Source: Bacteroidales bacterium (lineage in GTDB: Bacteria; Bacteroidota; Bacteroidia; Bacteroidales; UBA1402). From it: a DNA stretch of 64,000 bases. The translations under genes were made by a program, and so were the position numbers. Positions 23,793 through 43,726 of the stretch are shown here, in pieces. Under the pieces are notes generated by a model that was not told the DNA's origin, ran no database searches, and worked only from the letters and a program-made list of their open reading frames with translations. The stretch is taken from assembly GCA_045627385.1 (NCBI GenBank), contig JAZQNO010000020.1, positions 11,475 to 75,474 on the forward strand, read 5' to 3'. Position 1 is the first letter of the stretch, and each line of letters opens with the position of its first letter.

Positions 23793-24218
23793 ATGGGAAG
23801 ACTGCTGGCCATTGACTACGGACTGAAACGCACGGGCATCGCCGTGAGCGATCCCCTGCAACTGATTGCAAACGGTCTGACGACTGTGGAAACCGCCCGG
23901 CTGATGGACTGGCTCAAGGACTATCTGTCGCGCGAGAAAGTCGACACGCTGGTGCTTGGCCTGCCCCGTCAGATGAGCGGCCGCGAGTCGGCCACGATGC
24001 CTTATATCAGGCAGTTCGCCGCTGAGTTTCAAAAGCGTTTTCCCGACTGTCCGGTGGCTTTTTCCGACGAGCGCTTCACTTCGGTGCTGGCACATCAGGC
24101 CATGCTCGAGGGCGGTCTGAAAAAGAAGGACCGCCAGAACAAACCTCTGGTGGACTGCATCAGCGCCACCATCATTTTGCAGGGCTACATGGAATCCAGG
24201 CTAAACCAACAGCGTTGA
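23793..24218 (+). CDS. ruvX: YqgF/RuvX family nuclease (pre-16S rRNA processing)
   Basis: LLAIDYGLKRTGIAVSD, DERFTS, VDCISATIILQGY; -7 element TATCTTTG at 23758-23765. Confidence 0.95.
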   Translation: MGRLLAIDYGLKRTGIAVSDPLQLIANGLTTVETARLMDWLKDYLSREKVDTLVLGLPRQMSGRESATMPYIRQFAAEFQKRFPDCPVAFSDERFTSVLAHQAMLEGGLKKKDRQNKPLVDCISATIILQGYMESRLNQQR

Positions 24219-24226
24219 TTTCTGTC
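24202..24226 (+). promoter_or_regulatory. Candidate ECF-sigma promoter upstream of def
   Basis: TAAACC-N15-TGTC, 24 nt before def ATG; same geometry as the two copies at the ECF locus. Confidence 0.55.
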
Positions 24227-24250
24227 CAAACCTCATCAATACGTTTCAGT

Positions 24251-24805
24251 ATGCAATTGCCTATCTATCTCTACGGTCAGCCGGTTCTCCGGAACGAGAC
24301 CGAGGACATCGCCGCCGACTATCCCAAGCTCTCTGAGCTGCTCGACAATATGTACGAAACTCTGCTCAAGGCCGACGGCGTCGGTCTGGCCGCTCCGCAG
24401 GTCGGCCTGGGCATCCGTCTGTTTGTCATCGATCTGCGCCCGCTGGCAGACGAGGATCCCGCTTTCAAGGATTATACGAAAACTTTCATCAATCCTGAAA
24501 TACTCGAGTTTTCCGAAGAGAAGGAATCGATGGAGGAGGGCTGTCTGAGCATCCCGGGCATCCACGAGTCGGTCAGTCGCAGCACGCGTATCCGCATTGC
24601 CTATCAGGATGAAAAGTTCGAGGAGCACGACGAATGGTTCGAAGGCTTCCCGGCGCGCGTCATCCAGCACGAGTACGACCATCTGGAAGGCCACGTGTTT
24701 ACCGACCGCATCACGCCCATCCGCAAGCAACTGGTCAAGGCCAAGTTGCTCAACATCGTCAAGGGCCGTGTCTACTGTGACTACAAGGTGAAATTGGCCA
24801 AATGA
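24251..24805 (+). CDS. def: Peptide deformylase
   Basis: GVGLAAPQVG, EGCLSIPG, QHEYDHLEG. Confidence 0.97.
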   Translation: MQLPIYLYGQPVLRNETEDIAADYPKLSELLDNMYETLLKADGVGLAAPQVGLGIRLFVIDLRPLADEDPAFKDYTKTFINPEILEFSEEKESMEEGCLSIPGIHESVSRSTRIRIAYQDEKFEEHDEWFEGFPARVIQHEYDHLEGHVFTDRITPIRKQLVKAKLLNIVKGRVYCDYKVKLAK

Positions 24806-26874
24806 AGCCTCCCATGGGTATCGGCGGAAATGGAAAATCTCTCAGAAAGTATTTGCTGACCGTCCTTTTCGGAATGTCGGCCCTGTTTGCCTCTGCCCAG
24901 CTCAACACTGACCGCCTGATGGCTATCGGGCGCAATGCGCTTTATTTCGACGACTACATTCTCTCGATCCAGTATTTCAACCAGGTCATCAAGGTGAAGC
25001 CTTATCTGGCCGACCCTTATCTTTTCCGCGCCATCGCCAAATTGAGTCTGGAAGACTATCAGGGAGCCGAAGACGACTGCACGGAAGCGCTCCAGCGCAA
25101 TCCTTTCATGGTGAGAGCCTATTACTGCCGCAGTTATGCGCGGATGAACCTGAAGGACTACCGCGGTTCCATCGAAGACTGCCAGAAAGGACTGGAGTTC
25201 GATACGGAAAACAGTTCTCTGATGCTGAACAAGGCCATTTCGCGCCTTTATGCCGAGCAGTACGACTCGGCCCGGATTGACCTGGACAATCTCATCGACC
25301 GCTTTCCCAGAAACATGTACGCCTATATGAGCCGCGGCCAGCTGTGCATTGCCGTCGACGACACGCTGGGCGCCATCGACGATTTCAGCCGTGCCATTTC
25401 GGTGGACCGCTACTATGCGCCGGCTTATGCGGCCCGGGCCTATGTCTCCCTGCTGCGTGAAAGCTATACCGACGCCATTCCCGACCTCAACGAGGCTATC
25501 CGCCTGGAACCCGACAACGAAGGCTACTACATCAACCGCGGTCTGGCCCGCTACTATACGCACGACTACCGTGGCGTGCTGAGCGATTTCGACCGCGTGC
25601 TGCAGCTCAATCCCAATTCGGTGGAGACCTACTACAACCGTGGTCTGATCCGGGCCGAGGTGGGCGATGACAACCGCGCCATCGAAGATTTCGACAAGGT
25701 CATCTATCTGGATCCGGACAACGACATGGCCATTTACAATCGGGCGCTGCTGCGGGAGAACACGGGCGACCTGGCCGGTGCGGAAGAAGACCTGAATGTG
25801 ATCATCGACCGCTATCCGCAGTTTATCCCAGCCTATTACCAGCGTTCGGAACTTCGCCGCAAGCGGGGCGATGCCAAGGGGGCCGACAAGGATTATTTCG
25901 ATGCCTGGGACCTGGAGAACAAACTGCGTGAAGACCGTGCCGCCGGCCGTCGTTTTTCGGCCCGGGGCGACCGTCAGGAGGATGGGAAGGACGACAATGG
26001 CAAGGTGCGTCACGCCGACGAAACCGACATCAGCAAGTACAACCGTGTGATTGTGGCCGAGTCGGACGCCTCGCAGACGGCCCGCTATGCCAATCCCATC
26101 CGTGGCAACGTGCAGAATTTCAATGTGGACATCCAGTCTGAACCGATGTTTGTGTTGACTTTCTATGAAACGGAGAACTATGTGGAACGCCGTCGGGCGA
26201 TGAATATGGAAGCCTATCTGCAGCCTCTGACCGAACATTCGGCGGAGAATCTGCTGGTTACCAATGCGCCCAAGGCATTGGATACGCCTCAGGCAAACCG
26301 TCATTTCGCTTCGGTGGACCGCCACTCGAAGCAGATAGCGGAGGACGGCCGCAATGCGCGGCTCTATTTCGCCCGCGCCATCGATTTTTCGCTCATCAAG
26401 GATGTGGACAATGCCATCAAAGATCTCGACAGGGCGCTGACGCTGGACGAAGGCTTTGTGCTGGCCTATTTCGAACGGGCCAATCTGCGTTTCAGCCGCA
26501 TGATGTTCGAAATGTCCGAAAACCAGGATTCGGGTCAGGACGAAATGACTCCGTCGGACCAGTCCTTCAGCTCGGATTATCTGCTGGTGATGCAGGATTA
26601 CGACCGTCTGCTCGATGTGGATCCGGCATTCGTCTATGCCTGGTACAACCGCGGCTATATCCATTGCATGCAGAAGGATTACCGCAGTGCGCTGGAAGAC
26701 TACGACAAGGCCATCGGAATCAGTCCCGAATTTGCCGAAGCCTGGTTCAACCGCGGTCTCACCCATATCTATCTCGGTCAGCGAGAACAGGGCCTGCGCG
26801 ATTTGAGCCGCGCCGGCGAACTGGGCATCTACAAGGCCTACAACATCATCAAGCGTTTTTCCGACAACAACTGA
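24802..26874 (+). CDS. Secreted tetratricopeptide-repeat protein
   Basis: Signal peptide, many TPR units (AYYNRG / A..DY.KAI pattern); ATGA overlap with def. Confidence 0.88.
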   Translation: MKPPMGIGGNGKSLRKYLLTVLFGMSALFASAQLNTDRLMAIGRNALYFDDYILSIQYFNQVIKVKPYLADPYLFRAIAKLSLEDYQGAEDDCTEALQRNPFMVRAYYCRSYARMNLKDYRGSIEDCQKGLEFDTENSSLMLNKAISRLYAEQYDSARIDLDNLIDRFPRNMYAYMSRGQLCIAVDDTLGAIDDFSRAISVDRYYAPAYAARAYVSLLRESYTDAIPDLNEAIRLEPDNEGYYINRGLARYYTHDYRGVLSDFDRVLQLNPNSVETYYNRGLIRAEVGDDNRAIEDFDKVIYLDPDNDMAIYNRALLRENTGDLAGAEEDLNVIIDRYPQFIPAYYQRSELRRKRGDAKGADKDYFDAWDLENKLREDRAAGRRFSARGDRQEDGKDDNGKVRHADETDISKYNRVIVAESDASQTARYANPIRGNVQNFNVDIQSEPMFVLTFYETENYVERRRAMNMEAYLQPLTEHSAENLLVTNAPKALDTPQANRHFASVDRHSKQIAEDGRNARLYFARAIDFSLIKDVDNAIKDLDRALTLDEGFVLAYFERANLRFSRMMFEMSENQDSGQDEMTPSDQSFSSDYLLVMQDYDRLLDVDPAFVYAWYNRGYIHCMQKDYRSALEDYDKAIGISPEFAEAWFNRGLTHIYLGQREQGLRDLSRAGELGIYKAYNIIKRFSDNN

Positions 26875-26889
26875 TTATCATATGAACCG

Positions 26890-28818
26890 ATGAAACGGAT
26901 TTCTACTCTTTCAATTCTCCTGTGTGTCTCCATTCTGGCCTGGGCGGGAGAATCTCTGTTGGGATGGGCCTGCTACGAAGGTCTCGGTCTGGCCGGCACG
27001 TACGGTGGAATGACCGGAAAGACCGTCCATGTGGACAACCGCGAAGATTTGGCCCGATATGCCATGATGGAAGAACCGCTCACGATTGTCATCGACAAGG
27101 ACTTGAGCGGGGCTGGCCTGGATGACCGCAAGGATTTCATCTATATCGGCAGCGACAAGACCATCGTCGGTGCCGGCGACGGCATCCTGCTCAACGGCCT
27201 GGGTCTGGAACTGCAGGGACAGAGCAACGTCATCATCCGCAACCTCACGATTACAAAGGCCAAACCCGACGGGCTGGCCCTGCGCAACTGCCACCACATC
27301 TGGGTGGACCATAGCGATTTCTCTTCGGCCGACGACGGACTGCTCGACCTGACGCTCGGTTCTGACTTCATGACGGTTTCCTGGTGCCGCTTCCACCATC
27401 ACAACAAGGTGTCGCTGGCCAATTCGGGAACGGGCCATTCCGAGGATATCGGCAAGGAACGGGTCACCTACCATCACAACTGGTATTACGACGCCGTGCA
27501 GCGCAATCCCCGCGTCGGATACGGCAAAGGACATGTCTTCAACAACCTGTATACGCGCATCTCTTCCTATTGCGTGGGCTTCTTCTGCCGCGCCGAAGTG
27601 CTGGTCGAAAACAACAGTTTCCACGAGTCGGCCGCTTCGGTCCGTCAGATGTACAACGATTATCCGGGTTCGGCCTACTATGGCCTGTGTCTGACGAGGG
27701 GCAATCTCTACGACCGGACACCCTCGAAGGAATATCAGGACGATGTCTTCGATCCGGAAGATTTCTATTCTTACCGCTTCGCGCTAGATCCTGCCGAACA
27801 GGTCGAACAGAAGGTGCTGGCCTTTTCCGGTCCGCAGCCCGGCATCGCCGAAGATCTGATCCTGTATCCCGGCGACGGCACGCTCGACTATCAGGCTTCG
27901 CGTCTGATGTGGTCGAAGACAGGTGAAGAACAGAAGTGGATCCTTTCTTGGGGAACCGACAAGGAAAATCTTCAGAATCAAGAAATTGAAGATGCTTTCT
28001 GTGAATTGCCTCTGGATGCCGCCACCACTTATTTCTGGCAGGTCAAGGCGCTTATGAAAGATGGTTCCACGCGTGTCAGCCAGCTCAACCGCCTGAGCAC
28101 CGCTCCGGCACAGGCCAGCCGTCCGATGCCTGCCGACGGCAGTAAGAACGCCGCTCTCTATGTCGGCGCACAACGCTATTCGCTCAGTGCCGCTCCCTTG
28201 ACCTGGACGCCGGCCCGCGGCGCTGTCAAAGAACAGGTTTATGTGGGGACCACGCGCAAACTGACTGCCGCCAACCTGGTGCAGGATTCCGACCAGAGTG
28301 TCTTTTGGCCGGAGACGGGTTGGGATTTCAACCGCACCTATTATTGGAAGGTAGTCAGTCAGCTGGCCGACGGAAGCAGGGTGGAAAGTCCGGTCTGGTC
28401 TTTTTCATCGCAGCTTCCCGCGCTCAAGCCGGGTTTGACCGAGTGCGAGACGATGGCGCTTTCCGGACGGGCTTTCCAGGAACTGGTCGACTCCAAATGG
28501 TTCCAACCTTCTCAAGGACTGGTGGCCATGGCAGAATCGGGCATGGGCCTGATCAGTGGCGTATGGGCCGGTAAAAAAGGTGAGTACCGCATCTCGGTGA
28601 CCTATTTCGACGAAAAGGACGGACGCAGCCAGTGGCGCCTTCTCGTCAACGGCGAGGAAGCCGATGCCTGGCGCGGGGATTTGGACAACGAACAGCTGGT
28701 CTCGCATCAGTGTCCGACAGTCAGCCTCAAGCCTGGCGATGTCATCTCATTGGAAATCGTACAGCAGCGCGGCGAACAGGCCCGCACGGACTGTATCTCA
28801 ATAGAATCCGTCAAATGA
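26890..28818 (+). CDS. Multimodular PL1 pectate/pectin lyase with two FN3-like domains and a C-terminal CBM6/35-like domain
   Basis: NVIIRNL, IWVDH, DGLLD, HNKVSL, RNPRV PL1 motifs; YFWQVKA and YYWKVVSQ FN3-like ends; SPI signal; no CTD. Confidence 0.85.
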   Translation: MKRISTLSILLCVSILAWAGESLLGWACYEGLGLAGTYGGMTGKTVHVDNREDLARYAMMEEPLTIVIDKDLSGAGLDDRKDFIYIGSDKTIVGAGDGILLNGLGLELQGQSNVIIRNLTITKAKPDGLALRNCHHIWVDHSDFSSADDGLLDLTLGSDFMTVSWCRFHHHNKVSLANSGTGHSEDIGKERVTYHHNWYYDAVQRNPRVGYGKGHVFNNLYTRISSYCVGFFCRAEVLVENNSFHESAASVRQMYNDYPGSAYYGLCLTRGNLYDRTPSKEYQDDVFDPEDFYSYRFALDPAEQVEQKVLAFSGPQPGIAEDLILYPGDGTLDYQASRLMWSKTGEEQKWILSWGTDKENLQNQEIEDAFCELPLDAATTYFWQVKALMKDGSTRVSQLNRLSTAPAQASRPMPADGSKNAALYVGAQRYSLSAAPLTWTPARGAVKEQVYVGTTRKLTAANLVQDSDQSVFWPETGWDFNRTYYWKVVSQLADGSRVESPVWSFSSQLPALKPGLTECETMALSGRAFQELVDSKWFQPSQGLVAMAESGMGLISGVWAGKKGEYRISVTYFDEKDGRSQWRLLVNGEEADAWRGDLDNEQLVSHQCPTVSLKPGDVISLEIVQQRGEQARTDCISIESVK

Positions 28819-31091
28819 AGAAATCGTTTTTGTGGGGAATTGCCCTTACTCTTTTCCCCTTTTTCGCTCTTGATGCGCAGGAACCGGTGTTCAGCGAACC
28901 GGGCGGTCTGCGCACCGAAGCTTTCCAACTGAGTCTGAGCCCTTCGATGGAAGGTCTGCAGGTTTACTACACGCTCGACGGTCGGCGTCCGACCCGACAG
29001 AACGCCCACTTGTACGAATCGCCGATAGAAATCGCCAAGAATACCGTGGTGAGCGCTTTCTGCGCCGATCCTGCGGCTGGTGACGGGGCGATTGTGACAG
29101 CCACCTATCTGTTTGTGGATGACGTGCTTTCGCAGTCGGATTCGCCCGAAGGATACCCCTCTGGCTGGAGCATTTCTTCGGTCAGCGGCAAGGACACGGC
29201 TTTCTTTCCCGCGGACTATGGAATGGACTCGGCCATCTGTCAGTCGGCCTCTTACAAAAGCTTGATGTCGAGTGCACTGATGTCTTTGCCGACGCTTTGT
29301 CTGGTGACGGATGCTTCCAATCTATTCTCCCATTCGACCGATGAAGAGACGGGCGGCATTTATATCCATACCGGCAAGTCGTCGGGCAGTTACGGCAAAG
29401 AGTGGGAGCGTCCGGCCTCTTTGGAATATTACGATCCGCAGACGGGAAAATCTTTCCAGATCAACTGCGGACTTCGTCTGCACGGCGGCAACAGCCGCAA
29501 TCCGAGCAATTCGCCCAAGCATTCGTTCCGTGTCTCTTTCCGCACCGAATATGGCGACAGCAAACTGAAATTCCGCATTTTCGGCGACAAGTCGACCACC
29601 AAGAAGTTTGACCATCTGATTTTCCGTGCCGGATACAACTACACTTGGATTGTGAACGGAAGCAAGTCGCTGTATGCCAACAAGATTGTCCAGCGTCGGA
29701 ATGCCCAGTACATTTTGGATTCCTTTGCCAAGGAAGTGCATGCGGCTATGGGAAATCCGATTACGCACCGCCGGTTTGCGCATCTCTATCTCAACGGCAT
29801 CTACTGGGGCATGTATGAGATCAGCGAAAAGATAAACAACGATTTCGTACAGGCCTATCTGGGCGGAAAAGACGAAGATTACGACGTGGTGGGTGACCAC
29901 AACGAGACGATTGACGGCACTCGGGATATCTACAGCAAGATGTATGCCGCCGCCAAAGCGGTCACTTCGAGCGCCAATGACAAGAATTACGCGCTGCTGC
30001 TCGACAGTGCCTGGCTGGATATGGCCAACTACATCGACTATATGCTGGTGAACTGGTACATAGGTAACGAAGACTGGGGCGAGAACAACTGGCGTACGGC
30101 CCGCAGCCGTGTGGATCCGGGAAATGGTTTCACCTGGTTTGTCTGGGATGCAGAGACGTCGCTGACGGCTGTTGATATCAACAAGGTGACTTTCACGAAG
30201 GGCGATCCCTGCGTGATGATGAAGTCTCTCAAGAACCATCCGGAATTCAAGATGCTGATGGCTGACCGCATTCACCGTCATCTCTTCAACGACGGCATCC
30301 TGACGCCCGACAGCGCGGCTGCTCTCTACAGCCGTCTGGCCGACGGCATTTCGCTGGCTGTGATTGCCGAATCGGCCCGTTGGGGCGATTACCGGCTGAC
30401 GAAGACGGGCGAGGCGGAAGAGACTTACACGCGGGACGACTATTGGCTGCCGCGTTATGTTGACCTTCTGGAAAACTATTTCCCGCTGCGCACGGAATTT
30501 CTGTTGGACCAGCTGATAGCGGCAGACTGTTATCCGAAAGTCGCTGCGCCTGAATGTTCGCGCTGGGGCGGTACATTCAAGGAAAAGGAAATCGCTCTGG
30601 CTCTGACGGCGCCCGCCGGCACTGTCTGGTACACCCTCGACGGGAGCGACCCGCGCGAAGCTTACACGTCGAAAGTATCTTCTTCGGCTGTCAAATATCA
30701 GGATTCCATCCGTCTGAGCCGTTCCGACGAGGACACGCTGGCGTGCGTGACTCTGAAGGCCCGTTGTCTGTCGGGCAGCACCTGGTCGGCGCTGACGGAA
30801 TTTGAGTACCGTCTTGAAAAGGAACAGGTCGTCGATGCGCTTCCGATGCTGGAACGCTTCGATGCCTCTGTGGCTTATTGCAATGGAAATCTGGAGTTTG
30901 CAGTGCCTGAAAACGGCGATGCCGTCTGGATGGTCTATACGCTCGAAGGTCGGTTCGTGGCCGAAGGTCTGGTGCCTGACTGCAGTGCCGGACAGATTCG
31001 GTCGGTGTCTCTGGAACTGTCGGAAGGCGGGTATCTCTACCGGCTGGTCAGCGGCGGCAGATGCCGCACGGGAAAGTTCCTGGCCCGCTGA
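28815..31091 (+). CDS. CotH-kinase-family protein with flanking FN3-associated/chitobiase-C-like domains and T9SS CTD
   Basis: YYTLDGRRPT and WYTLDGSDP repeats; KHSFRVSFR, YLNGIYWGMYEISEK, GNEDWGENNW, WDAE; CTD VYTLEGR...GGYLYRL; ATGA overlap with PL1. Confidence 0.82.
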   Translation: MKKSFLWGIALTLFPFFALDAQEPVFSEPGGLRTEAFQLSLSPSMEGLQVYYTLDGRRPTRQNAHLYESPIEIAKNTVVSAFCADPAAGDGAIVTATYLFVDDVLSQSDSPEGYPSGWSISSVSGKDTAFFPADYGMDSAICQSASYKSLMSSALMSLPTLCLVTDASNLFSHSTDEETGGIYIHTGKSSGSYGKEWERPASLEYYDPQTGKSFQINCGLRLHGGNSRNPSNSPKHSFRVSFRTEYGDSKLKFRIFGDKSTTKKFDHLIFRAGYNYTWIVNGSKSLYANKIVQRRNAQYILDSFAKEVHAAMGNPITHRRFAHLYLNGIYWGMYEISEKINNDFVQAYLGGKDEDYDVVGDHNETIDGTRDIYSKMYAAAKAVTSSANDKNYALLLDSAWLDMANYIDYMLVNWYIGNEDWGENNWRTARSRVDPGNGFTWFVWDAETSLTAVDINKVTFTKGDPCVMMKSLKNHPEFKMLMADRIHRHLFNDGILTPDSAAALYSRLADGISLAVIAESARWGDYRLTKTGEAEETYTRDDYWLPRYVDLLENYFPLRTEFLLDQLIAADCYPKVAAPECSRWGGTFKEKEIALALTAPAGTVWYTLDGSDPREAYTSKVSSSAVKYQDSIRLSRSDEDTLACVTLKARCLSGSTWSALTEFEYRLEKEQVVDALPMLERFDASVAYCNGNLEFAVPENGDAVWMVYTLEGRFVAEGLVPDCSAGQIRSVSLELSEGGYLYRLVSGGRCRTGKFLAR

Positions 31092-31092
31092 T

Positions 31093-32136
31093 TCAACATG
31101 TCATCTCACCGCAAAGGCTCTGCGAAAGCAGGGCCTTTACTTTTTCCTGTCCGTCGGGGTCGTCGCGATATTCGCCCAGCAGATACATCAGCTTGCTGAC
31201 AAGGGCTTCCGTGGTGATGTCGTGGCCGCTCAGAATGCCGGCTTGCAGCAGATTGACGCCGGTGGCATAGCGGTCCATCTCCACCGTGCCTGTGCTGCAC
31301 TGTGTCTTGTTGACGATGATGATGCCGCGACGGATGGCCTCCAGCAGTTCCTGCTTGAGCCATTCCTGGCGCGAGGCGTTGCCCGATCCGAAGGTTTCCA
31401 GTACGACGGCTTTCAGGTCGGGAATGCCCAAGATGGCCTGCACGGTCTGGCGCGAAATGCCGGGGAACAGTTTCAGAATGGCCACTCGGCTGTCGGTCTG
31501 CGTCATCAGGCGCAGCGGCTCTTTGTCCTGCGGATAGTGGATGTTGGCGCTTTCGTAACGGATGTGGACTCCGGCTTTGGCCAGAGGAGGGTAGTTGTAG
31601 GAAGTGAAGGCATTGAAATGTTCGGCATTCTTCTTGGTGGTGCGGTTGCCGCGGAAGAGTGTGTCTTCGAAGAAGATGCAGACTTCGGGCACCATGGCGC
31701 TGCCGTCGGGGCGGGTGGCGGCTGCTATCTCTATGGCGGTGAGCAGATTTTCTTTGGCATCGCTTCGCAGGACGCCCACCGGAAGCTGTGAACCGGTGAA
31801 GATGACGGGCTTGGACAGATGCTGCAGCATGAAACTCAGGGCCGAGGCGGAATAGGCCATGGTGTCGGTGCCGTGCAGGACGACAAAACCCTTGTATCGG
31901 TCGTAATGCTCGAAAATGCTTTCTGCCAGGCGTTTCCAGTCGTCAGGCGAAATGTCGGACGAATCGACCATGGGATTGAAATGGATGGAATCGATGCGGA
32001 AACCGAACTGGTCGAGCTCGGGAAGATATTGGCGCAACTGGTTGAAATCGAGCGGCTCCAGTGATGCGTTCGGTCCGCTGGGGGCCATGCTGATGGTTCC
32101 GCCGGTAAAGATGAGCAGAATGGCTTTTTCGTCCAT
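31093..32136 (-). CDS. ansA: L-asparaginase type I
   Basis: IFTGGTISM, HGTDTMAY, TGSQLP, ETFGSGN; -7 element TATCTTTG at 32173-32180 (minus). Confidence 0.95.
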   Translation of the reverse strand: MDEKAILLIFTGGTISMAPSGPNASLEPLDFNQLRQYLPELDQFGFRIDSIHFNPMVDSSDISPDDWKRLAESIFEHYDRYKGFVVLHGTDTMAYSASALSFMLQHLSKPVIFTGSQLPVGVLRSDAKENLLTAIEIAAATRPDGSAMVPEVCIFFEDTLFRGNRTTKKNAEHFNAFTSYNYPPLAKAGVHIRYESANIHYPQDKEPLRLMTQTDSRVAILKLFPGISRQTVQAILGIPDLKAVVLETFGSGNASRQEWLKQELLEAIRRGIIIVNKTQCSTGTVEMDRYATGVNLLQAGILSGHDITTEALVSKLMYLLGEYRDDPDGQEKVKALLSQSLCGEMTC

Positions 32137-32238
32137 ATGTATTCAAATGAAAAATCGCTTGTAGAGAACGCTCAAAGATATAGGAAAGTTTGCGGAAAAA
32201 ATCTATTTTTGGGGACTAATCACAAGTATTCAGCCCAT

Positions 32239-34491
32239 ATGCGCCAAACCAATTACCAACTGTATGATTTTCTGGATTTCGATCCGGACCTCAATAAAGG
32301 CGAACGCCTCTGGAAAGCCTGCCGGCCGACCGGTATCGAAGAAATCGGCGGCGAAATTTTCCTGACGGTTCCTTTCCAACAGCAGCAGAATTCCAATGAG
32401 ATAGCTCCTGACGAGACAGTGGCACGCCGTCCCGTGCGTATCCGTCTGAAAGCCTACGGCGACAGCATCATCCGTGTGTCGGCCGCTTTCGACGAAGGCA
32501 AGCCGACCACCAACCCGGGCTCCCTGAGCGCCGTCCACGAAGATTCGGCCATGCTTCAGCTGCATCCCGAACTGAAGGCGGAGGCTCTTCATCTAGGCCC
32601 GGTTTCGAAGGAGGGCGACCAGCCTTGGCAAATCTTCGATACGAAGAATGTGCTGAGGGCTCAGGTCTGTTTCGCCGAACCGGCGCTGGAGCCTTGGAGC
32701 GACCTGCAGCCTGCGCCTGCCGAATCGATGGACCTGCGGCTGTATCCTCACGGCAAAGAAGTCCGTCTGCCCAAGTACGACATGTTTTCTCCGGCCCGTC
32801 ACGATGCGTTTCCCATAGCCTTTGTCACGGTGGACGGTGTGGCCGACCGAGCCACCTGCTCCATCGCCGCCAAAGCCGACGAGTGTTTCTTCGGCACAGG
32901 CGAGCGTTTTGCCAAGATGGACCTTTCAGGCCGCACCGTACAGTTGTACAACCAGGACGGCCAGGGTGTCAACAACCGCCGCGCCTACAAGAACATACCT
33001 TTCTATCTGTCGTCAGAGGGCTACGGCCTTTTCGTCCACACCACTTACTTTACAAAATTCTCGCTGGCCGAGCATTCGACCCGTTCGGCACAGGTGCTGG
33101 TGGACGAACCTGTCATTGACTTTTTCGCCATCGGCGGCGACACGCCCGAACGCATTCTCTACGGCTACCGTCAGTTGACGGGATTCCCTTCGATGCCTCC
33201 TGTCTGGAGTTTCGGCACCTGGATGAGCCGCATGACCTATTTTTCGGCCGACGAGGTGAATGAAATCTGCGACCGTATGCGTGCGGAGGGCTATCCCTGT
33301 GATGTGATCCATCTCGATACCGGCTGGTTCAAGACCGACTGGCTCTGCGAATGGAAGTTCAACGACGAGCGTTTTCCCGACCCGAAGGGTTTCATTCAGA
33401 AACTGAAGAAACAGGGCTATCGCGTGAGCCTCTGGCAGTTGCCCTACATTTCGTATGCGGCCGCCCAGTACGAAGAAGCCAGCCGCAACCACTATATCAG
33501 TCAGAGTGAGAAGAAGATTCAGGGCGCTTCGAACTTCAGCGTGCAGGATTATGCCGGCACCATCGATTTCACCTACGCTCCCGCCACCGAATGGTACAAG
33601 AATCTGCTGCGTCAGCTGCTGGAAATGGGTGTGGCCTGCATCAAGACCGATTTCGGCGAGGACATCCACATGGATGCCCAGTATCACGGCATGACGCCGA
33701 AGGAATTGCGCAACATCTATTCGCTCTATTATCAGAAGGCTGCCTACGAGGTGACGGAGGAAGTGAACGGGGAGGGCATCGTCTGGGCCCGCAGCGCCTG
33801 GGCAGGCTGCCAGCGCTATCCGCTTCACTGGGGCGGAGACTCGGCTTCCTCCTGGGACGGACTGGCCGGTTCTCTGAAGGGCGGTCTGCATTTCGGACTT
33901 TCGGGCTTCGGTTTCTGGAGTCACGACGTGCCCGGTTTCCACAGCGTCCCCAACTTTATGAACACCCGACTGGACGAGACGGTCTATGTGCGTTGGACCC
34001 AGTTCGGCGTCTTCACTTCGCATCTGCGCTATCACGGCTCCTTCAAACGTGAGCCCTGGCATTATCCGACCATCGCTCCAATCGTGCGCGACTGGCTGCA
34101 GCTGCGTTACCATCTGATGCCTTATATCCTGGAGCAGGCCCGCAAGACCACGCAGACGGGTTATCCCATGCTGCGCGCGCTCTGTCTGATGTTCCCCGGC
34201 GACAGGCTCTGCCGACATATCGACGACGAATACATGTTTGGCGACGACTTCCTGGTGGCGCCTGTGATGAATGCCGAAGGGGTGCGCGATGTCTATCTGC
34301 CGGAAGGCAAGTGGGTGAATTTCTTCACGAAGGAACGTTTCGAAGGCCCCGTCTGGCTGAAGGATCTCCAAGTGCCCTTGGAGGAAATGCCCGTTTATGT
34401 GCGCGAGGGCGCCGGAATTCCCTGGTATCCCGAAGAGGTGGCCTGCACCGACGATATGGATTTCAATAAAGTAATCATAAAACGTTTCTGA
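32239..34491 (+). CDS. GH31 glycoside hydrolase (YicI-like alpha-xylosidase or alpha-galactosidase type), cytoplasmic
   Basis: IHLDTGWF, nucleophile motif CIKTDFGE, WGGDS, acid/base WSHDVPGF, YMFGDDFLVAP; no signal peptide; -7 element TATTTTTG at 32204-32211. Confidence 0.9.
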   Translation: MRQTNYQLYDFLDFDPDLNKGERLWKACRPTGIEEIGGEIFLTVPFQQQQNSNEIAPDETVARRPVRIRLKAYGDSIIRVSAAFDEGKPTTNPGSLSAVHEDSAMLQLHPELKAEALHLGPVSKEGDQPWQIFDTKNVLRAQVCFAEPALEPWSDLQPAPAESMDLRLYPHGKEVRLPKYDMFSPARHDAFPIAFVTVDGVADRATCSIAAKADECFFGTGERFAKMDLSGRTVQLYNQDGQGVNNRRAYKNIPFYLSSEGYGLFVHTTYFTKFSLAEHSTRSAQVLVDEPVIDFFAIGGDTPERILYGYRQLTGFPSMPPVWSFGTWMSRMTYFSADEVNEICDRMRAEGYPCDVIHLDTGWFKTDWLCEWKFNDERFPDPKGFIQKLKKQGYRVSLWQLPYISYAAAQYEEASRNHYISQSEKKIQGASNFSVQDYAGTIDFTYAPATEWYKNLLRQLLEMGVACIKTDFGEDIHMDAQYHGMTPKELRNIYSLYYQKAAYEVTEEVNGEGIVWARSAWAGCQRYPLHWGGDSASSWDGLAGSLKGGLHFGLSGFGFWSHDVPGFHSVPNFMNTRLDETVYVRWTQFGVFTSHLRYHGSFKREPWHYPTIAPIVRDWLQLRYHLMPYILEQARKTTQTGYPMLRALCLMFPGDRLCRHIDDEYMFGDDFLVAPVMNAEGVRDVYLPEGKWVNFFTKERFEGPVWLKDLQVPLEEMPVYVREGAGIPWYPEEVACTDDMDFNKVIIKRF

Positions 34492-36056
34492 TGAACAATT
34501 TAGTACAACTGTCGACTGCCGACATCATTGTGTTTGTCGCCTATGTCGTGATCCTTTTGGGCATCGCCGTCTGGGCAAGTTTCGGAAAGAACAAGAGTGA
34601 CAATCTGTTCCTGGCCAACAAGTCGCTGGGCTGGTTCGCCATCGGTCTCACGATGTGGGGCACCAATGTGGGCCCGTCCATGCTGGTGGCCAACGCTTCG
34701 AGCGGTTTTGAGGGCGGTATCGCCGCCGGGATGTTCTCCTGGTATGCGTTTCCGTTCATCTTGTTGCTGGCCTTTGTGTTCGCTCCCCGGTATCTGGGCT
34801 CTCAAGTGAGCACACTGCCCGAATATATGGGCAAACGCTTCGGACAGAACACCCGCAGCTACATTGCCTGGTACACCATTCTGACCATCCTCATCTCCTG
34901 GCTGGCGCTGACGCTGTTCTGCGGAGGGGTCTTCATGGCGCAGATCCTAGCCTTCCCGCTGTGGGCATGCATTGTCATCCTGGTGCTCGTATCGGCTGCC
35001 TTCGCCATTGCCGGAGGTCTGAAAGCCATTGCCTATACCAATGTGTTCCAGATGCTTCTGCTCATCGGCGTATCGGTGCTGCTGGTCATTATGGGACTGG
35101 TCAAGGTGGGCGGAACGGGCGCGCTCATCGAAAAGACGCCGGCCGATTACTGGAATCTGTTCCGTCCATTGGCCGACAGGGATTTCCCCTGGCTGGCCAT
35201 CATTCTGGGCTATCCCATCATGGGTGTCTGGTTCTGGTGCACGGACCAGTCGATGGTGCAGTCGGTGCTCGGTGCCCGCGACCTGAAAGAAGGCCAGAAG
35301 GGCGCCAATTTCTGCGCCTGGCTGAAACTGCTCGACATTCCTCTGTTCATTCTTCCGGGTGTCCTGTGCTTCTGCCTGCTGCCCGAACTGGAAAATTCCA
35401 CCGATTCTTATCTGCAGCTGGTCAGCCACGTGTTCCCCTCGGGTCTGATGGGTTTGGTCATCGTGGTGATGGTCGCCGCTCTCGTCAGTACCATCGGCTC
35501 GGCTTTGAACTCTCTGAGTACGGTGTTCACCATGGACATCTATCTGAAGAAATTCCGTCCGGACGCTTCTGAAAAGGAAATCCGGAGCATCGGCCGCTGG
35601 GTGGTGGTCGCCGGAGCCGTATTGAGCATTTTCCTGGCCCTGGTCATCACCCGCATCCAGGGCTTGAGTTTCTTCAACATCTTCCAGTCGGTGCTCGGTT
35701 TCATCGCTCCTCCGATGTCGGCGGCCTTCCTGTTCGCCGCTCTTTGGAACAAGACATCCGCCAAGGCTGTCAACATCACGCTGACTGCGGGCACCGTCTT
35801 CAGCATCGGCCTGGGCATCCTTTATTATTGCGGTCTCATCCTGCCCGGTGTGCATTACCTGTATTTGTCGGCCGGCATTTTCGCAGTGCTGGCTCTTTAT
35901 ATCTGGATTCATTCTCTGCTTGAGAGCAGGGGAGCGGAAGCGCCCGAAAGTGTCGCTGTCGCCGCACCCGTCAAGGTGACGGGCGGACTGAAACTGGCAT
36001 GGGTGCTGCTGATTGTCTGCATGGCTGCCGCCTATCTGATTTTCAACGGTCATTAA
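34491..36056 (+). CDS. Sodium:solute symporter (SGLT/SSS family sugar transporter)
   Basis: About 14 hydrophobic segments, TLPEYMGKRF, WFWCTDQSMVQSVLGA, DIY. Confidence 0.93.
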   Translation: MNNLVQLSTADIIVFVAYVVILLGIAVWASFGKNKSDNLFLANKSLGWFAIGLTMWGTNVGPSMLVANASSGFEGGIAAGMFSWYAFPFILLLAFVFAPRYLGSQVSTLPEYMGKRFGQNTRSYIAWYTILTILISWLALTLFCGGVFMAQILAFPLWACIVILVLVSAAFAIAGGLKAIAYTNVFQMLLLIGVSVLLVIMGLVKVGGTGALIEKTPADYWNLFRPLADRDFPWLAIILGYPIMGVWFWCTDQSMVQSVLGARDLKEGQKGANFCAWLKLLDIPLFILPGVLCFCLLPELENSTDSYLQLVSHVFPSGLMGLVIVVMVAALVSTIGSALNSLSTVFTMDIYLKKFRPDASEKEIRSIGRWVVVAGAVLSIFLALVITRIQGLSFFNIFQSVLGFIAPPMSAAFLFAALWNKTSAKAVNITLTAGTVFSIGLGILYYCGLILPGVHYLYLSAGIFAVLALYIWIHSLLESRGAEAPESVAVAAPVKVTGGLKLAWVLLIVCMAAAYLIFNGH

Positions 36057-36074
36057 TCAAAACAGCTCGTTCAG

Positions 36075-39000
36075 ATGAAAAAGTTTATTCCGATGGCTGT
36101 CGCAGGGATGCTGGGGCTTGTCTGTCTTCCCTGTCTGAAAGCTGAAACCCTGTCGCTCAACGAAGCTTGGCAAACGTATCTGCTGGAATCCCACACGGGT
36201 GCACCCACCGATACCTTTACGGTGGACATTCCCCACAACTGGGACGACTACTACGGCTATCGGCAACTGACTCACGGCAATCTGCACGGTTCGGCGTTTT
36301 ATTCCTGCCATTTCAGTCTGACGGACAAGCAGTGGCACGACGGACGTCACGGTCTGCTCCGTTTCGAGGGTGTGGGCTCCTATGCGACGGTCCGGCTCAA
36401 CGGCCGCGATTTGGGACGCTATGCCGGAGGTCGTGTCTGCTTTTTCGTGGATGCCACCGAAGCGCTCAGAACGGGTGACAACTATCTGGAAGTGAAGGTG
36501 GAACACCCGGAAATGATCAGCGATCTACCTTGTGTTTGCGGAGGCTGTTCATCGGAATGGGGATTCAGCGAAGGTTCGCAGCCGCTGGGCATTTTCCGCC
36601 CGCTGAGTCTGGAACTGACCGATGAAGTGCGTGTGGAACCTTTCGGCGTGCATGTGTGGTCCAATGATGCGCTCGACACGCTTTTCGTGGAAACGGAAAT
36701 CCGTAACCAGACTTCCCGCGAACAGACTGTTGTCTTGAATTCAAAAGCAGTCGGAGCGGAAGGCGAGACGCTGTTGTCGTTTGACGGACTCGGTCTGAGG
36801 GTGCCTGCCGATACGGTGGTGATTGTGCGTCAGAGCGTCCGGCTCGACAAGTTCCGCCGCTGGAGTCCGACCGACCCCTATCTGTACAGCCTGGAATCGG
36901 TCCTGAATGACAGCCGTGGCACGCAGCAATACGCGCTTTCGACCCGTTTCGGACTCAGAAGCATTTCCTGGCCGGTGAAACGGCAGGATGGAGACGGTCG
37001 TTTCTATATCAACGGTGAGCCTTATTTCATCAACGGCACTTGTGAATACGAACATCTGCTGGGCGGCGGACACGCTTTTTCCGAGGCTCAGATCCGTGCC
37101 CGTGCCAAAGAAATCCTTTCGGCCGGTTTCAATGCCTACCGCGATGCCCATCAGCCTCACAATCTGCTCTATCAGCAGATTTGGGACGAAAATGGAGTGC
37201 TGTTCTGGACGCAGCTGTCGGCGCATATTTGGTATGACACGCCCGAATTCAGGGAAACTTTCAAGGCTCAGATGCGCCAGTGGGTGAGGGAACGCCGCAA
37301 TTCGCCTTCCGTGGTCCTCTGGGGCTTGCAGAACGAGAGCGTGCTTCCCGAAAGTTTCGCCCGCGAATGTTGCGAAATTATCCGCGAGATGGATCCGACG
37401 GCCCGTACGATGCGGGCCATCACCACCTGCAACGGCGGTGTCGGCACCGATTGGAATGTGGTCCAGAACTGGAGCGGAACCTATGGAGGCGACCTTTTCC
37501 TGTATGACCGCGAACTGGCCGGACCTTCGCAGCTGCTTAACGGTGAATATGGCGCCTGGCGCACTTTCGGACTGCATCAGGAACCGGCTCCTTTCGACGC
37601 CCAGGGTGCATACAGCGAGGAACGTTTCACCCAACTGCTGGAAACCAAGGTCCGCTTGGCCGAACAGGCCCGCGACCGGGTTTGCGGTCAGTTTCAATGG
37701 ATTTTCGAAAGTCACGACAATCCCGGCCGACGTCAGCCCGAAGAGGCGTACCGTGCCATCGACCGTGTCGGCCCTGTCAACTACAAAGGCCTGCTGACTC
37801 CCTGGGAGGAACCTGTGGATGCCTATTACATGTACCGTTCCAACTATGTGGAGGCTGAGGAAGATCCTATGGTCTATGTGGTGTCGCACACCTGGCCTGA
37901 CCGTTTCCCGACTTCTGCATCGGCCGATGTGGAAGTTTTCAGCAACTGCGATTCGGTGGTGCTCTTCAACGATGCCGACGGATGTCGTCTCGGCTCTCAG
38001 GCCCGACCGGAAGGGAAGGGCCGCCATTTTGTCTTCCAAAAGGTGTCTATCCGCTACAATGTGCTGAAAGCGGTCGGCTATGTCGGCGGCAAATCTTGCG
38101 CTGAGGATCTGATAGTGCTTTCCAATCTGCCCGAATCGCCCGAATTCAAGTCTTTGTACGTTTGCAGCGACGGTCGACGGCTGACGGCCAAGACCGATCT
38201 GCTCCGTCCGGCCAAGGGCTATCGCTATGTGTGCCGTCTCAACTGTGGCGGCGACGATTATACCGATGCCTACGGGCATCTGTGGCAGCAGGACAACCTG
38301 ATCTGGTCTCATTCCTGGGCGCAGGATTTTCCCTCGATGAATCCCTATCAGGCCAGTCAGCGCTGGACGGCCGATCCGATTGCCAATACCCGCGACTGGC
38401 CGCTGATCGGTCATTTCCGCTACGGCCGGCAGCGGCTGTCGTACCGTTTTCCTTTGCCCAACGGTTCTTATCGTCTCGAACTGTATTTCGTGGAGCCCTG
38501 GTACGGCACCGGAGGAATGAAAGACGCTTCCGGTCTGCGCCGTTTCGACGTGGCAGTCAATGGTGAAACCCGTTTGAAGGACTTGGATATCTGGTCAGAA
38601 GCCGGCCACGATGCGGGCTTGCGCAAGACTTTGGACGTGGAGGTGACCGATGGTTGCCTCTGCGTGTCGTTCCCGAAAGTGGAAGTGTCTCAGGCCCTGA
38701 TTTCGGCCATTGCCATTTCTTGCCGAGACCGCAAACTGAGCAAAGAGGCGACGGCCATGTTGCAGGAAAACCTGTTTCCTGTAACCAAGTCGCTGAATGC
38801 CATCGAATATGCGCAGAATTATGTGGACGACTGGTCTTGGGAGGAAGCCGACGGGATCTGCTATGGCAAACTCCCCTCCGAGTTGCTTCCTGAAGATATA
38901 CCGGCCCGTCCTTCTGTCAATTATCCGGCTGTGGAGGCGGCCAGGGAAGGGCAGTGGCGACAGATTTTTGAACGCAAGAAGGATGCCGTCATGTATATGG

Positions 39001-39299
39001 CTGCGGAAAACGGAACTCAGTCCATCACATGGGAGATTGCTACGGGGTTGGCTCAAGTCTACGCACTCCGTTTCAACTATCGCAATCTGTCAACGGAAGA
39101 TGTGCCGGTCAAGCTGCGTATGACTTCGGCCGACGGCAGAGTGCTGAAGGAGTCGGTTCTGACCTTCTCTCCCAATGACAGAGGCTGGAAGGCGCTCAGC
39201 ACCACCACAGGCACTTACGTGAATGCGGGAACCTATTTTATCGAACTGTCAGCCCCCAGCATGGAAGGCCTGCAGTTAGAAAGTCTGGATGTCCAGTAA
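36075..39299 (+). CDS. GH2 beta-galactosidase-like enzyme with malectin and C-terminal CBM-like domains, periplasmic
   Basis: SPI signal; LRFEGV, WGLQNES acid/base, NGEYGAW nucleophile, FSNCDSVVLF, malectin LNCGG...LYFVEPW...FDVAVNG. Confidence 0.9.
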   Translation: MKKFIPMAVAGMLGLVCLPCLKAETLSLNEAWQTYLLESHTGAPTDTFTVDIPHNWDDYYGYRQLTHGNLHGSAFYSCHFSLTDKQWHDGRHGLLRFEGVGSYATVRLNGRDLGRYAGGRVCFFVDATEALRTGDNYLEVKVEHPEMISDLPCVCGGCSSEWGFSEGSQPLGIFRPLSLELTDEVRVEPFGVHVWSNDALDTLFVETEIRNQTSREQTVVLNSKAVGAEGETLLSFDGLGLRVPADTVVIVRQSVRLDKFRRWSPTDPYLYSLESVLNDSRGTQQYALSTRFGLRSISWPVKRQDGDGRFYINGEPYFINGTCEYEHLLGGGHAFSEAQIRARAKEILSAGFNAYRDAHQPHNLLYQQIWDENGVLFWTQLSAHIWYDTPEFRETFKAQMRQWVRERRNSPSVVLWGLQNESVLPESFARECCEIIREMDPTARTMRAITTCNGGVGTDWNVVQNWSGTYGGDLFLYDRELAGPSQLLNGEYGAWRTFGLHQEPAPFDAQGAYSEERFTQLLETKVRLAEQARDRVCGQFQWIFESHDNPGRRQPEEAYRAIDRVGPVNYKGLLTPWEEPVDAYYMYRSNYVEAEEDPMVYVVSHTWPDRFPTSASADVEVFSNCDSVVLFNDADGCRLGSQARPEGKGRHFVFQKVSIRYNVLKAVGYVGGKSCAEDLIVLSNLPESPEFKSLYVCSDGRRLTAKTDLLRPAKGYRYVCRLNCGGDDYTDAYGHLWQQDNLIWSHSWAQDFPSMNPYQASQRWTADPIANTRDWPLIGHFRYGRQRLSYRFPLPNGSYRLELYFVEPWYGTGGMKDASGLRRFDVAVNGETRLKDLDIWSEAGHDAGLRKTLDVEVTDGCLCVSFPKVEVSQALISAIAISCRDRKLSKEATAMLQENLFPVTKSLNAIEYAQNYVDDWSWEEADGICYGKLPSELLPEDIPARPSVNYPAVEAAREGQWRQIFERKKDAVMYMAAENGTQSITWEIATGLAQVYALRFNYRNLSTEDVPVKLRMTSADGRVLKESVLTFSPNDRGWKALSTTTGTYVNAGTYFIELSAPSMEGLQLESLDVQ

Positions 39300-39307
39300 A
39301 AGAAAAG

Positions 39308-39341
39308 GCAAAAAAAGTCGGCCGTCATTTGCGGTCGACTT
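39308..39341 (-). terminator. Intrinsic terminator of the ECF module, also facing GH2
   Basis: AAGTCGGCCG-loop7-CGGTCGACTT followed on the minus strand by a T-run. Confidence 0.7.
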
Positions 39342-39804
39342 GGCGGAGTATCTCGCGTGTCCAGGCGTCTTCTGTCTGATAAAACTTGTAGATCTTTTCG
39401 GGACTCAGCAATTTTGTCAGCTGTTCGTAAAACTCCCGGTCTACCGTCGCCTGACTTTCTTTCAGCTCGATGATTCTTTTGTTGACGCGGGTGTAATTGG
39501 CAGCCGCGTCTTCCGTTTTCTTGAAACATTTGCCCAACTCGTGGTTGATTTTCCAGCTTTTCAGACTGTATTCGTTGTAGATGGGCCAAAAGAGATCGGA
39601 TTCTTCAGGAGTGAGACCGATGCGACTGGTGTAGAAAGCCACCATGCGCTGGCGTATTTCCAAGCGTTTGGCTTCGAGCTGCTGGCGGCGTTCGGCTTTC
39701 TGCGCCTCGGTCAGCTGTTGACCTGCGTTGGCTTGAGAAGTCTGTGCCGGCACATTGGCGCAAACAGACAGGAGCAGCAGAAGGGGAAGGAATATCTTTT
39801 TCAT
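39325..39804 (-). CDS. Secreted helical protein, Spy/CpxP-like
   Basis: Signal MKKIFLPLLLLLSVCANVPA; LTPEES..FWPIYNEY and LSPEKI pattern. Confidence 0.65.
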   Translation of the reverse strand: MKKIFLPLLLLLSVCANVPAQTSQANAGQQLTEAQKAERRQQLEAKRLEIRQRMVAFYTSRIGLTPEESDLFWPIYNEYSLKSWKINHELGKCFKKTEDAAANYTRVNKRIIELKESQATVDREFYEQLTKLLSPEKIYKFYQTEDAWTREILRQVDRK

Positions 39805-39811
39805 TGCCCAA

Positions 39812-40180
39812 TCAATCCATGTTGTCTTCGTCTTCGTAGAGGTAGTAGTAGATGGCGTTGCCATCGAGTGATCCGATCAGAATGTCTTCTGCGGTGAGTT
39901 CCGTATCGATGGAAATCTCTTCCAACTGATCGAGCAAAGTGTACTGTTCGGCCGGTTCTTCCTGGTGGCGGAGTTTCATCACACCGTTAATGGTGAGGAA
40001 CATCAGCACAAACATGGCAGCAAAATAAACATACGGGCGGAAACGGCCCCACATCGTCATACGCGGAGTCTCCATTTCGTCCAAACGGGCGTCCAGCCGA
40101 GCCTGAAAATCATCGAAATAATTCTCAGGGAGCTGGAAACAACTTCTGTCGCCCGGTTCTTTCAAACAATCCTTATTCAT
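39812..40180 (-). CDS. Single-TM membrane protein, candidate anti-sigma factor
   Basis: FQLPENYFDDFQARL N-terminus, one TM (YVYFAAMFVLMFLTI), directly downstream of ECF sigma. Confidence 0.6.
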   Translation of the reverse strand: MNKDCLKEPGDRSCFQLPENYFDDFQARLDARLDEMETPRMTMWGRFRPYVYFAAMFVLMFLTINGVMKLRHQEEPAEQYTLLDQLEEISIDTELTAEDILIGSLDGNAIYYYLYEDEDNMD

Positions 40181-40202
40181 AAAACTCTTTAAACATTCCT
40201 TT

Positions 40203-40229
40203 GACGATACTCGCTTTCAAAGGTTTAAA
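40203..40229 (-). promoter_or_regulatory. Candidate ECF promoter (internal, before anti-sigma candidate)
   Basis: Minus strand TTTAAACC-N15-CGTC, 22 nt before ATG. Confidence 0.7.
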
Positions 40230-40242
40230 ATATCAATTATTT

Positions 40243-40797
40243 CTATATCAAATCGGCTGTCAGGTAAGCCTGTATCTTCTTGACGGCTATGTGGTACGAG
40301 GCTTTCAGAGCGCCGACCGAAGTGCCCAGTATTTCGGACATTTCTTCGTATTTCATGTCGTCGTAATATTTCATATTGAACACCAGCCGCTGTTTGTCGG
40401 GCAGGTTCAGAACGGCTTTCTGGAGCTTCTCGGTAGTCTCATCGCCCGAAAAATAGGGGTCGCTGTGGAGTTGTTGCACCATCACATCTTCCAGATCGGT
40501 GAAATCGGCCAGGCTCTCTTCGCGCTGCTTGTTCAGAAACGAGTACGTTTCGTTGATGGCGATGCGGAACATCCAGGTGGACAGGCGGGAATCGCCTTTG
40601 AACTGATCCAAGTGCTCCCAGACTTTGATGAAGGTGTTCTGCAAAATGTCGTCGGAATCGTCGTGCGACAACACCATCTTTCGAATCTGCCAATACAGCG
40701 AATGGGACATCTCTTTGACGAGCCGGCTGAATCCCTGCCGCTTGGTCTTTTCGTCGGCAAGCAGTTTCAGAATCTCTTTTTCGGTTTGGATGTCCAT
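40243..40797 (-). CDS. ECF RNA polymerase sigma-70 factor
   Basis: Region 2 DDILQNTFIKVW...STWMFRIAIN; region 4 LPDKQRLVF...YEEMSEILG. Confidence 0.95.
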   Translation of the reverse strand: MDIQTEKEILKLLADEKTKRQGFSRLVKEMSHSLYWQIRKMVLSHDDSDDILQNTFIKVWEHLDQFKGDSRLSTWMFRIAINETYSFLNKQREESLADFTDLEDVMVQQLHSDPYFSGDETTEKLQKAVLNLPDKQRLVFNMKYYDDMKYEEMSEILGTSVGALKASYHIAVKKIQAYLTADLI

Positions 40798-40820
40798 AGT
40801 TGGCTGATTAACTAAATAAA

Positions 40821-40847
40821 GACATTGACTTGTCCGAATGGTTTAAA
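40821..40847 (-). promoter_or_regulatory. Candidate autoregulatory ECF promoter
   Basis: Minus strand TTTAAACC-N15-TGTC, 23 nt before sigma ATG, overlapping the cdsA stop. Confidence 0.7.
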
Positions 40848-43724: not shown

Positions 43725-43726
43725 AA

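Follow-up and report, generated by a model that had tools for sequence, protein, structure and literature searches.

Which promoter serves the extracytoplasmic function (ECF) sigma factor encoded at this locus of a Bacteroidales bacterium, and how far does its regulon reach? The locus lies in a 64,000-nucleotide stretch (hereafter, the window) of contig JAZQNO010000020.1 (C20:11475-75474) of assembly GCA_045627385.1, a genome of 2.13 Mb in 34 contigs with 54% G+C that has been detected in gut and mouse-gut metagenomes. An earlier note on this DNA had proposed a "de novo" promoter motif, TAAACC-N15-YGTC, at three sites: before the ECF sigma gene (P1), before the next gene downstream (P2; hereafter, the +1 gene), and before the deformylase gene def (the def site). 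It read the motif as the sigma factor's own, autoregulated promoter, with a regulon reaching def and possibly the pectate lyase and CotH genes behind it. We find that the element is very probably the promoter recognized by this sigma factor, a member of group ECF03, with an autoregulated sigma/+1 operon and a wider regulon, as argued from deep conservation and from a matching promoter of the group that has been tested in Escherichia coli. The extension to def was not established.

A rare two-box element at the sigma locus

All three sites were found at the positions given in the note, with near-equal spacers and start-codon distances of 22-24 nt (Table 1). They are the only matches to TAAACC-N15-YGTC in the window, compared with 0.13 on average, and never more than 1, in 100 dinucleotide-preserving shuffles. 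A looser pattern, AAACC-N13-17-GTC, was not enriched in the window (11 matches vs 11 expected), which indicates that the exact spacing and the flanking bases matter. The genome-wide scan that the note had called for, made with gene calls from a crude open reading frame (ORF) caller, returned five exact matches in the 2.13 Mb, all five of them non-coding and upstream of an ORF start. When the same core was searched with every other spacer from 10 to 21 nt, each spacer gave 0-1 non-coding upstream matches (~0.55 per genome), and exact-core non-coding matches in six relatives averaged ~0.3 per genome.

In those six relatives (G001, G006, G010, G011, G014, and G018), the pattern read backwards outnumbers the exact motif 2-5-fold (130 vs 48 matches), and nearly all matches to the exact motif are intragenic; this scarcity could be a composition effect or could reflect selection against stray promoters. 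The word TAAACC by itself is common near gene starts, just 3' of TTTG-type primary promoter boxes (e.g., tttgccttcagaTAAACC; other cases are at C15:32570, C4:49532, and C8:18575), and may be preferred near transcription starts. The background is therefore higher for any motif that contains it.

Assignment of the sigma factor to ECF03

The 184-aa sigma factor has regions 2 and 4 only and falls within the ~180-200 aa expected of ECF (group 4) sigma-70 proteins, with matches to Sigma70_r2 (E 2e-12) and Sigma70_r4_2 (E 1e-12) and a score of 92 bits against TIGR02937 (sigma70-ECF; cut-off 42.9). ECF03 is reportedly one of the groups of ECF sigma factors in Staron 2009. Sequence identity to reference proteins places our sigma factor in this group: it is 54% identical to ECF03_1244 (E 6e-68), which may be PG1318 (a guess from gi-number arithmetic only), and 43% identical to ECF03_1198 (E 5e-51). 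These references come from Porphyromonas gingivalis W83 and Bacteroides thetaiotaomicron, respectively (Rhodius et al. 2013, PMC3817407 supplement), and ECF03 is found mainly in Bacteroidota (PMC7826278).

In E. coli, the promoter Pecf03_up1198 (TTTAAC-N17-TTCTAA) was induced 314-fold by ECF03_1198 and 27.7-fold by ECF03_1244, and was cross-activated 12-15-fold by ECF02 sigma-E proteins (PMC3817407). P1 and P2 have the same AAC-N17-xTC-TAA layout, conserved among relatives, as an own-operon promoter of an ECF03 sigma factor should. A promoter of this layout had thus already been tested for the group, and the promoter type is known rather than new, contrary to the note's description of it as de novo.

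The genome encodes only five sigma-70-family proteins, one primary and four ECF, and the one other sigma gene with a visible -35-like box upstream has GTAAC rather than TAAACC. With so few ECF sigma factors, and GTAAC at that other gene, TAAACC-type sites are best assigned to the ECF03 sigma factor.

Conservation of the probable promoter across Bacteroidota

Sigma orthologues were found in 27 of 41 related genomes. Following the note's suggestion that the promoters of orthologous sigma and downstream genes be compared, we found nAAACn-N15-n(G/A)TC before the sigma gene in 17 of 25 oriented loci and before the +1 gene in 22 of the 25, a set that extends to other families in which the sigma factor is only 46-56% identical. 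The boxes and their spacing are conserved and the sequence of the 15-nt spacer is not; a paralogous sigma clade (44-50% identity) lacks the motif. The T at the second position after TAAACC is present in 15 of 17 sites upstream of sigma genes and in 14 of 14 sites upstream of outer-membrane barrel genes. As judged from sequence comparison, this pattern is the phylogenetic footprint of a two-box promoter.

We extended the search to 80 loci in GTDB genomes, covering Bacteroides, Dysgonomonas, Pedobacter, Mucilaginibacter, Chitinophaga, Flavobacteriaceae, Paludibacter, Muribaculaceae, and Prevotellaceae. The element directly follows the sigma gene in 73 of the 80 loci and also precedes it in 25. 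In many cases the TAA stop codon of the sigma gene forms the first three bases of the P2-type TAAACC (L011, L014, L022-L025, and many of L151-L230), and the T before that stop, a third codon position, is 95% conserved, so that coding sequence and promoter are interlocked.

The +1 gene encodes a 122-aa protein with ~45 predicted cytoplasmic residues followed by one membrane helix. It has no Pfam or NCBIfam match, yet a short motif near its N-terminus, FxVP(E/D)xYF, recurs in 70 of 74 +1 proteins across the phylum (loci L151-L230) and occurs twice in those of Sphingobacteriia (Pedobacter and Mucilaginibacter). Compared with a class I anti-sigma domain (ASD), it gives no profile match, and its ~45 residues before the helix are fewer than the ~80-90 aa of such a domain; from its linkage to the sigma gene, it is a candidate non-canonical anti-sigma factor. 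The +2 ORF, 179 aa as called, probably starts at MKKIFLPLL; its product matches no known family and has no similarity to the secreted 167-aa protein among the predicted targets.

Table 1 Features of the window discussed in the text (window coordinates; minus-strand genes in the order ftsH, cdsA, sigma gene, +1, +2; plus-strand genes in the order ruvX, def, TPR, PL1, CotH).
Feature	Position	Strand	Description
P1, putative ECF03-type promoter	40821-40847	-	TTTAAACC-N15-TGTC; -35 TTTAAACCATT, -10 TGTCTTT; 23 nt to sigma ATG at 40797
P2, putative ECF03-type promoter	40203-40229	-	TTTAAACC-N15-CGTC; -35 TTTAAACCTTT, -10 CGTCAAA; in sigma/+1 intergenic gap; 22 nt to +1 ATG at 40180
def site, match to core only	24201-24226	+	CTAAACC-N15-TGTC; CTAAACCAAC-N-TGTCCAA; 24 nt to def ATG at 24251
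ECF sigma factor gene	40243-40797	-	184 aa; Pfam Sigma70_r2 + Sigma70_r4_2
+1 gene	39812-40180	-	single-pass membrane protein; N-terminal FQLPENYF
+2 gene	39325-39804	-	secreted helical protein, ~159 aa; start overlaps +1 gene end
cdsA	40843-41658	-	upstream neighbour of sigma gene; Pfam CTP_transf_1; TAA stop (40845-40843) inside P1 -35 box
ftsH	41652-43769	-	upstream of cdsA; Pfam Peptidase_M41 + AAA
Four-gene block	24251-31091	+	co-directional; families by Pfam
def	24251-24805	+	
TPR protein gene	24802-26874	+	
PL1 pectate lyase gene	26890-28818	+	
CotH-family gene	end 31091	+	
Weak hairpin	28832-28849		with T-run; between PL1 and CotH genes
Terminator-like hairpin	31113-31138	+	strong; 11 base pairs + T-run; just after CotH gene

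Predicted regulon in the host genome

To score sites throughout the host genome, we used a weight matrix built from 94 distinct sites before +1 genes, all from outside that genome (consensus a-T-T-A-A-A-C-C-T-T-t, N12, a-(G/A)-T-C-(T/A)-A-A). At 21 bits or more, a 15-nt spacer gave eight non-coding matches and one coding match, and no other spacer from 10 to 21 nt gave any; at 15 bits or more there were 16 non-coding matches, against a mean of ~2.8 at other spacers. P2 scored highest in the genome (29.0 bits), and P1 scored 22.9 bits.

The new strong sites lie 28-90 nt upstream of their predicted target genes. Among these are genes for an 826-aa and a 976-aa outer-membrane protein (TonB-like barrels with OMP_b-brl_3, CarboxypepD_reg, and Plug domains), an RND/HlyD efflux adaptor, an S8 peptidase, a small secreted Gln/Gly-rich protein, a 511-aa PL1-like lyase (site of 22.3 bits), and an 849-aa PL1 protein (16.3 bits). 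Another predicted target is a block that lies behind a 1509-aa PL11 rhamnogalacturonan lyase gene; a gene of the DHDPS family heads this block, followed by an SSF transporter, DUF3826, two DUF6298, and BT_1020-like genes. When 1552 genes are ranked by upstream score, three of the top 16 are pectate-lyase genes (rough P ~5e-4). The two exact-core matches outside the window likewise precede lyase genes: one on contig C34 (15.0 bits) lies before a 707-aa PL10 pectic-acid lyase with a long C-terminal extension (Pfam E 4e-117), and one on C2 (5.6 bits) lies before a 549-aa secreted pectate lyase (PDB 9buj, E 6e-37). No conserved site was found before the orthologues of either gene in relatives. The C34 site is likely to work as a promoter by these sequence criteria; the C2 site might, but we would not count on it.

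Several observations concern the genes around these sites. The barrel proteins with sites (C28:68144-71074 and C17:8189-10669, within the regions C28:64991-71142 and C17:8189-10735) have Gly-rich C-terminal tails, and a third outer-membrane protein of the same kind, without a site of its own, is encoded directly downstream of the first (C28:64991-68107). DHDPS-family genes adjoin PL1-like lyase genes in the host (regions C25:9150-23301 and C25:29996-32738) and in two relatives (loci L100 and L103); with the DHDPS-headed block behind the PL11 gene, this looks like an uncharacterised pectin or rhamnogalacturonan pathway. With at least 11 PL1-like paralogues and five sigma-70-family genes, the genome is unusually rich in lyases and poor in regulators. 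One 21.4-bit match (C1:8416-8456), just before the gene for a 968-aa secreted protein whose likeness to glycoside hydrolase family 95 was judged by eye only, overlaps an inverted repeat (GCCCGAT...ATCGGGC) followed by a T-run and could be a terminator rather than a promoter.

Sites in relatives

A search of 13 relatives with TTAAACY-N16-RTCWAA gave 45 matches, compared with 25 for a reversed control, and the ORFs downstream were mapped back to the host genome by BLAST. Apart from the sigma and +1 genes, the site precedes orthologues of the two large outer-membrane barrel genes in 10 genomes; beyond the sigma operon, no predicted ECF03 targets are more widely conserved than the orthologues of the two barrel genes on C28. 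Sites also precede a PL1 gene in G007, PL11 rhamnogalacturonan lyase genes in G010 and G014, and an esterase gene in G016 and G018. PL1 orthologues in congeners have sites of 21.8 bits (G006), 14.4 and 29.7 bits (G007), 12.0 bits (G002), and 22.5 bits (G003). The orthologous sites of G002 and G007 read ATAAACCAAA, lacking the T-tract, and their spacers have diverged, indicating that sites without a T-tract can persist.

These targets in relatives indicate a core regulon of the sigma operon and the TonB-like barrels, to which the pectin enzymes are, on the distribution of predicted sites, lineage-specific additions at the family level. The suggestion in the note that pectate lyases might belong to the regulon thus gains indirect support from other PL1, PL10, and PL11 genes with good sites in the host and its relatives; for the PL1 gene behind def it was not established.

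The def site and other bare-core sites

The def site (Table 1) has its -35 box in the last codons of ruvX, whose stop codon is at 24216-24218. The four genes that follow are closely packed (gaps of -4 nt between def and the TPR gene and 15 nt between the TPR and PL1 genes), and no strong terminator was found before 31113, in agreement with the note's remark that none is visible within the block, where we saw only one weak hairpin. Within 28632-28849, the CotH ORF in its longest form shares 187 nt with the 3' end of the PL1 gene, so the CotH protein probably begins further downstream. The C-terminal tail of RuvX (ESRLNQQR; region 24160-24250) is longer in the host than in most relatives, and in G001, G004, and G005 the sequence before def is of another kind, with a TTTG-type box. 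Two DNA runs (X1 and X2) were from the same strain and offered no informative variation at the def site.

Is the def site a working internal promoter, through which deformylase, TPR, PL1 lyase, and CotH would be induced with the sigma regulon? The core and spacer are perfect, and the distance to the start codon is that of P1 and P2. Exact-core non-coding matches are rare, yet the host has three beyond the sigma locus. The block contains a PL1 lyase gene, and polysaccharide lyase genes are a recurrent target class; the conserved PL1 sites of G002 and G007 likewise lack the T-tract. The 32-nt gap between ruvX and def is unique to the host (3-10 nt in most relatives). Set against this, the site scores only 9.3 bits (rank 42 in the genome), in a band (9-15 bits) where a 15-nt spacer is not enriched (19 non-coding matches vs ~16 at other spacers). 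At -1 it has C, the expected (A/T)TT is replaced by AAC, which puts A at a nearly invariant T, and GTC is followed by C. The comparison of def orthologues suggested in the note found no site before def in any of 29 relatives, and G002, G006, and G007, which keep the order def-TPR-PL1, have none anywhere in ruvX-def-TPR-PL1 or before ruvX, def, or PL1. Because the motif was itself partly defined from the def site, def is not independent support for it. On this balance the def site, a species-specific match to the core only, may act as a promoter, with the odds tilted slightly against it, and the note's proposal that the sigma regulon reaches def was not established: its score is that of background.

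A second possibility is that the bare-core sites before def, the C2 PL1-like gene, and the C34 PL10 gene are chance pairings of two short words, both common near gene starts in Bacteroidota. By itself, TAAACC precedes dozens of genes, in many cases behind a TTTG box, and TGTC can arise from TTTG followed by TC; at C34, a perfect TAnnTTTG box (TATATTTG) shares bases with the TGTC. The sites have no T-rich -35 extension, and none is conserved in orthologous promoters. Three chance matches are nevertheless improbable when 0.3-0.55 are expected (P ~0.003-0.02, or 0.03-0.1 without def, the discovery site), and two of the three precede pectate lyase genes, a class enriched by the independent matrix. 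We therefore regard chance as a rather unlikely account of these sites. It is highly improbable that the conserved element serves some other regulator as an operator, or that it acts as a signal at the RNA level where the sigma gene ends. In many genomes the P2-type element does overlap the stop codon of the sigma gene, a place that could suit a terminator or processing site, but two boxes held 15 nt apart around a free spacer, in one orientation, recur 20-60 nt before the starts of unlinked genes and fit both the AAC/GTC pattern of ECF promoters and the tested ECF03 promoter.

A model for the ECF03 regulon

We propose that TAAACC(A/T)TT-N12-n(G/A)TC(T/A)AA is read by the ECF03 sigma factor encoded at 40243-40797, region 4 contacting the -35 box and region 2 the GTC of the -10 box. 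Through P1 the sigma gene would be positively autoregulated, in addition to any transcription that reads through from ftsH-cdsA. P2, overlapping or abutting the sigma stop codon, would drive the +1 membrane protein, a likely inhibitor, together with the secreted +2 protein, and in this way provide negative feedback. The rest of the host regulon would comprise about 8-13 sites, before the two barrels, the Gln/Gly-rich protein, the efflux adaptor, the S8 protease, PL1 genes, and the rhamnogalacturonan-type operon; PL10-CE8 probably belongs to it as well, and the def site may add sigma-dependent transcription to def-TPR-PL1-CotH. The note's inference that the element is the sigma factor's own promoter is supported. 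A sigma-E-like envelope-stress regulon would be dominated by genes for envelope biogenesis and repair and would respond to envelope damage; the predicted targets include two outer-membrane barrels, the efflux adaptor, and small secreted proteins, and also lyases and an esterase. The note's envelope-stress label is a plausible hypothesis.

Several points weigh against parts of this model. The def and C2 sites, and in part the C34 site, lack the T-rich -35 extension. The anti-sigma role of the +1 protein is argued from linkage only, and the protein has no recognised anti-sigma domain. Labels of "non-coding" are approximate, given the crude ORF caller. ECF03 sigma factors have been described as having no conserved anti-sigma factor nearby (PMC7406223); given that report, the +1 family may be an unrecognised class of partner.

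The predicted sites suggest that lyase genes outside polysaccharide utilization loci (PULs) are wired to an ECF03 sigma factor in a pectin-specialised gut lineage. A broader reading at the family level is more doubtful than not, and we offer it tentatively: that an ancient, phylum-wide ECF03 sigma factor was co-opted to control pectin breakdown as a stand-alone regulator, held by a short, hitherto unrecognised FxVPxxYF anti-sigma factor and co-inducing TonB-like barrels and scattered PL1, PL10, and PL11 genes, here also def-TPR-PL1-CotH. If it were true, the secretion of plant-wall enzymes would be tied to an envelope signal outside any PUL. The def claim would matter less, being a species-level quirk. 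The analysis gives a usable ECF03 promoter model, TTAAACC(A/T)TT-N12-nRTCWAA, a conserved core regulon (the sigma operon and two TonB-like barrels), and, as a candidate partner, a protein that bears a short conserved motif.

Comparison with known systems

The closest comparison is with the tested ECF03 promoter itself. Pecf03_up1198 and the promoters described here share the layout AAC-N17-(G/T)TC-TAA and differ in the bases around it, TTTAAC...TTCTAA in the tested promoter and TAAACC...(G/A)TCTAA in the host clade. We found no description of a native ECF03 regulon, signal, or inhibitor (anti-sigma factor) in the accessible literature.

Sigma-E of E. coli (RpoE, ECF02) recognizes the consensus GGAACTT-N16-TCAAA. 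The resemblance to the proposed ECF03 system lies in the AAC(T/C)TT -35 and TC(T/A)AA -10 elements, autoregulation, an inhibitor encoded in the operon, and targets among outer-membrane proteins. In contrast to the sigma-E system, the host locus has no homologues of RseA, RseB, or DegS, the +1 protein has only ~45 cytoplasmic residues, and the predicted targets include secreted polysaccharide lyases.

ECF sigma factors are also known to control polysaccharide-degrading enzymes of Bacteroidota in the PUL-embedded ECF10/ECF240 systems, which have FecR-type anti-sigma factors and SusC-like transducers. Here neither a FecR-like anti-sigma factor nor a SusC with an N-terminal signalling extension adjoins the sigma gene, and the predicted targets are scattered over contigs. 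SigW-1 (BT1817) of B. thetaiotaomicron is placed in ECF251, with no significant motif reported (PMC12596196), and in these respects differs from the sigma factor described here. The two are alike in that SigW-1 is also a stand-alone ECF sigma factor with an adjacent transmembrane protein (BT1816) and controls glycan-degrading genes, the sulfatases of PUL59, remotely and not from inside a PUL. This distant ECF control of PUL59 is a parallel to the scattered lyase genes that we propose the ECF03 sigma factor would reach.

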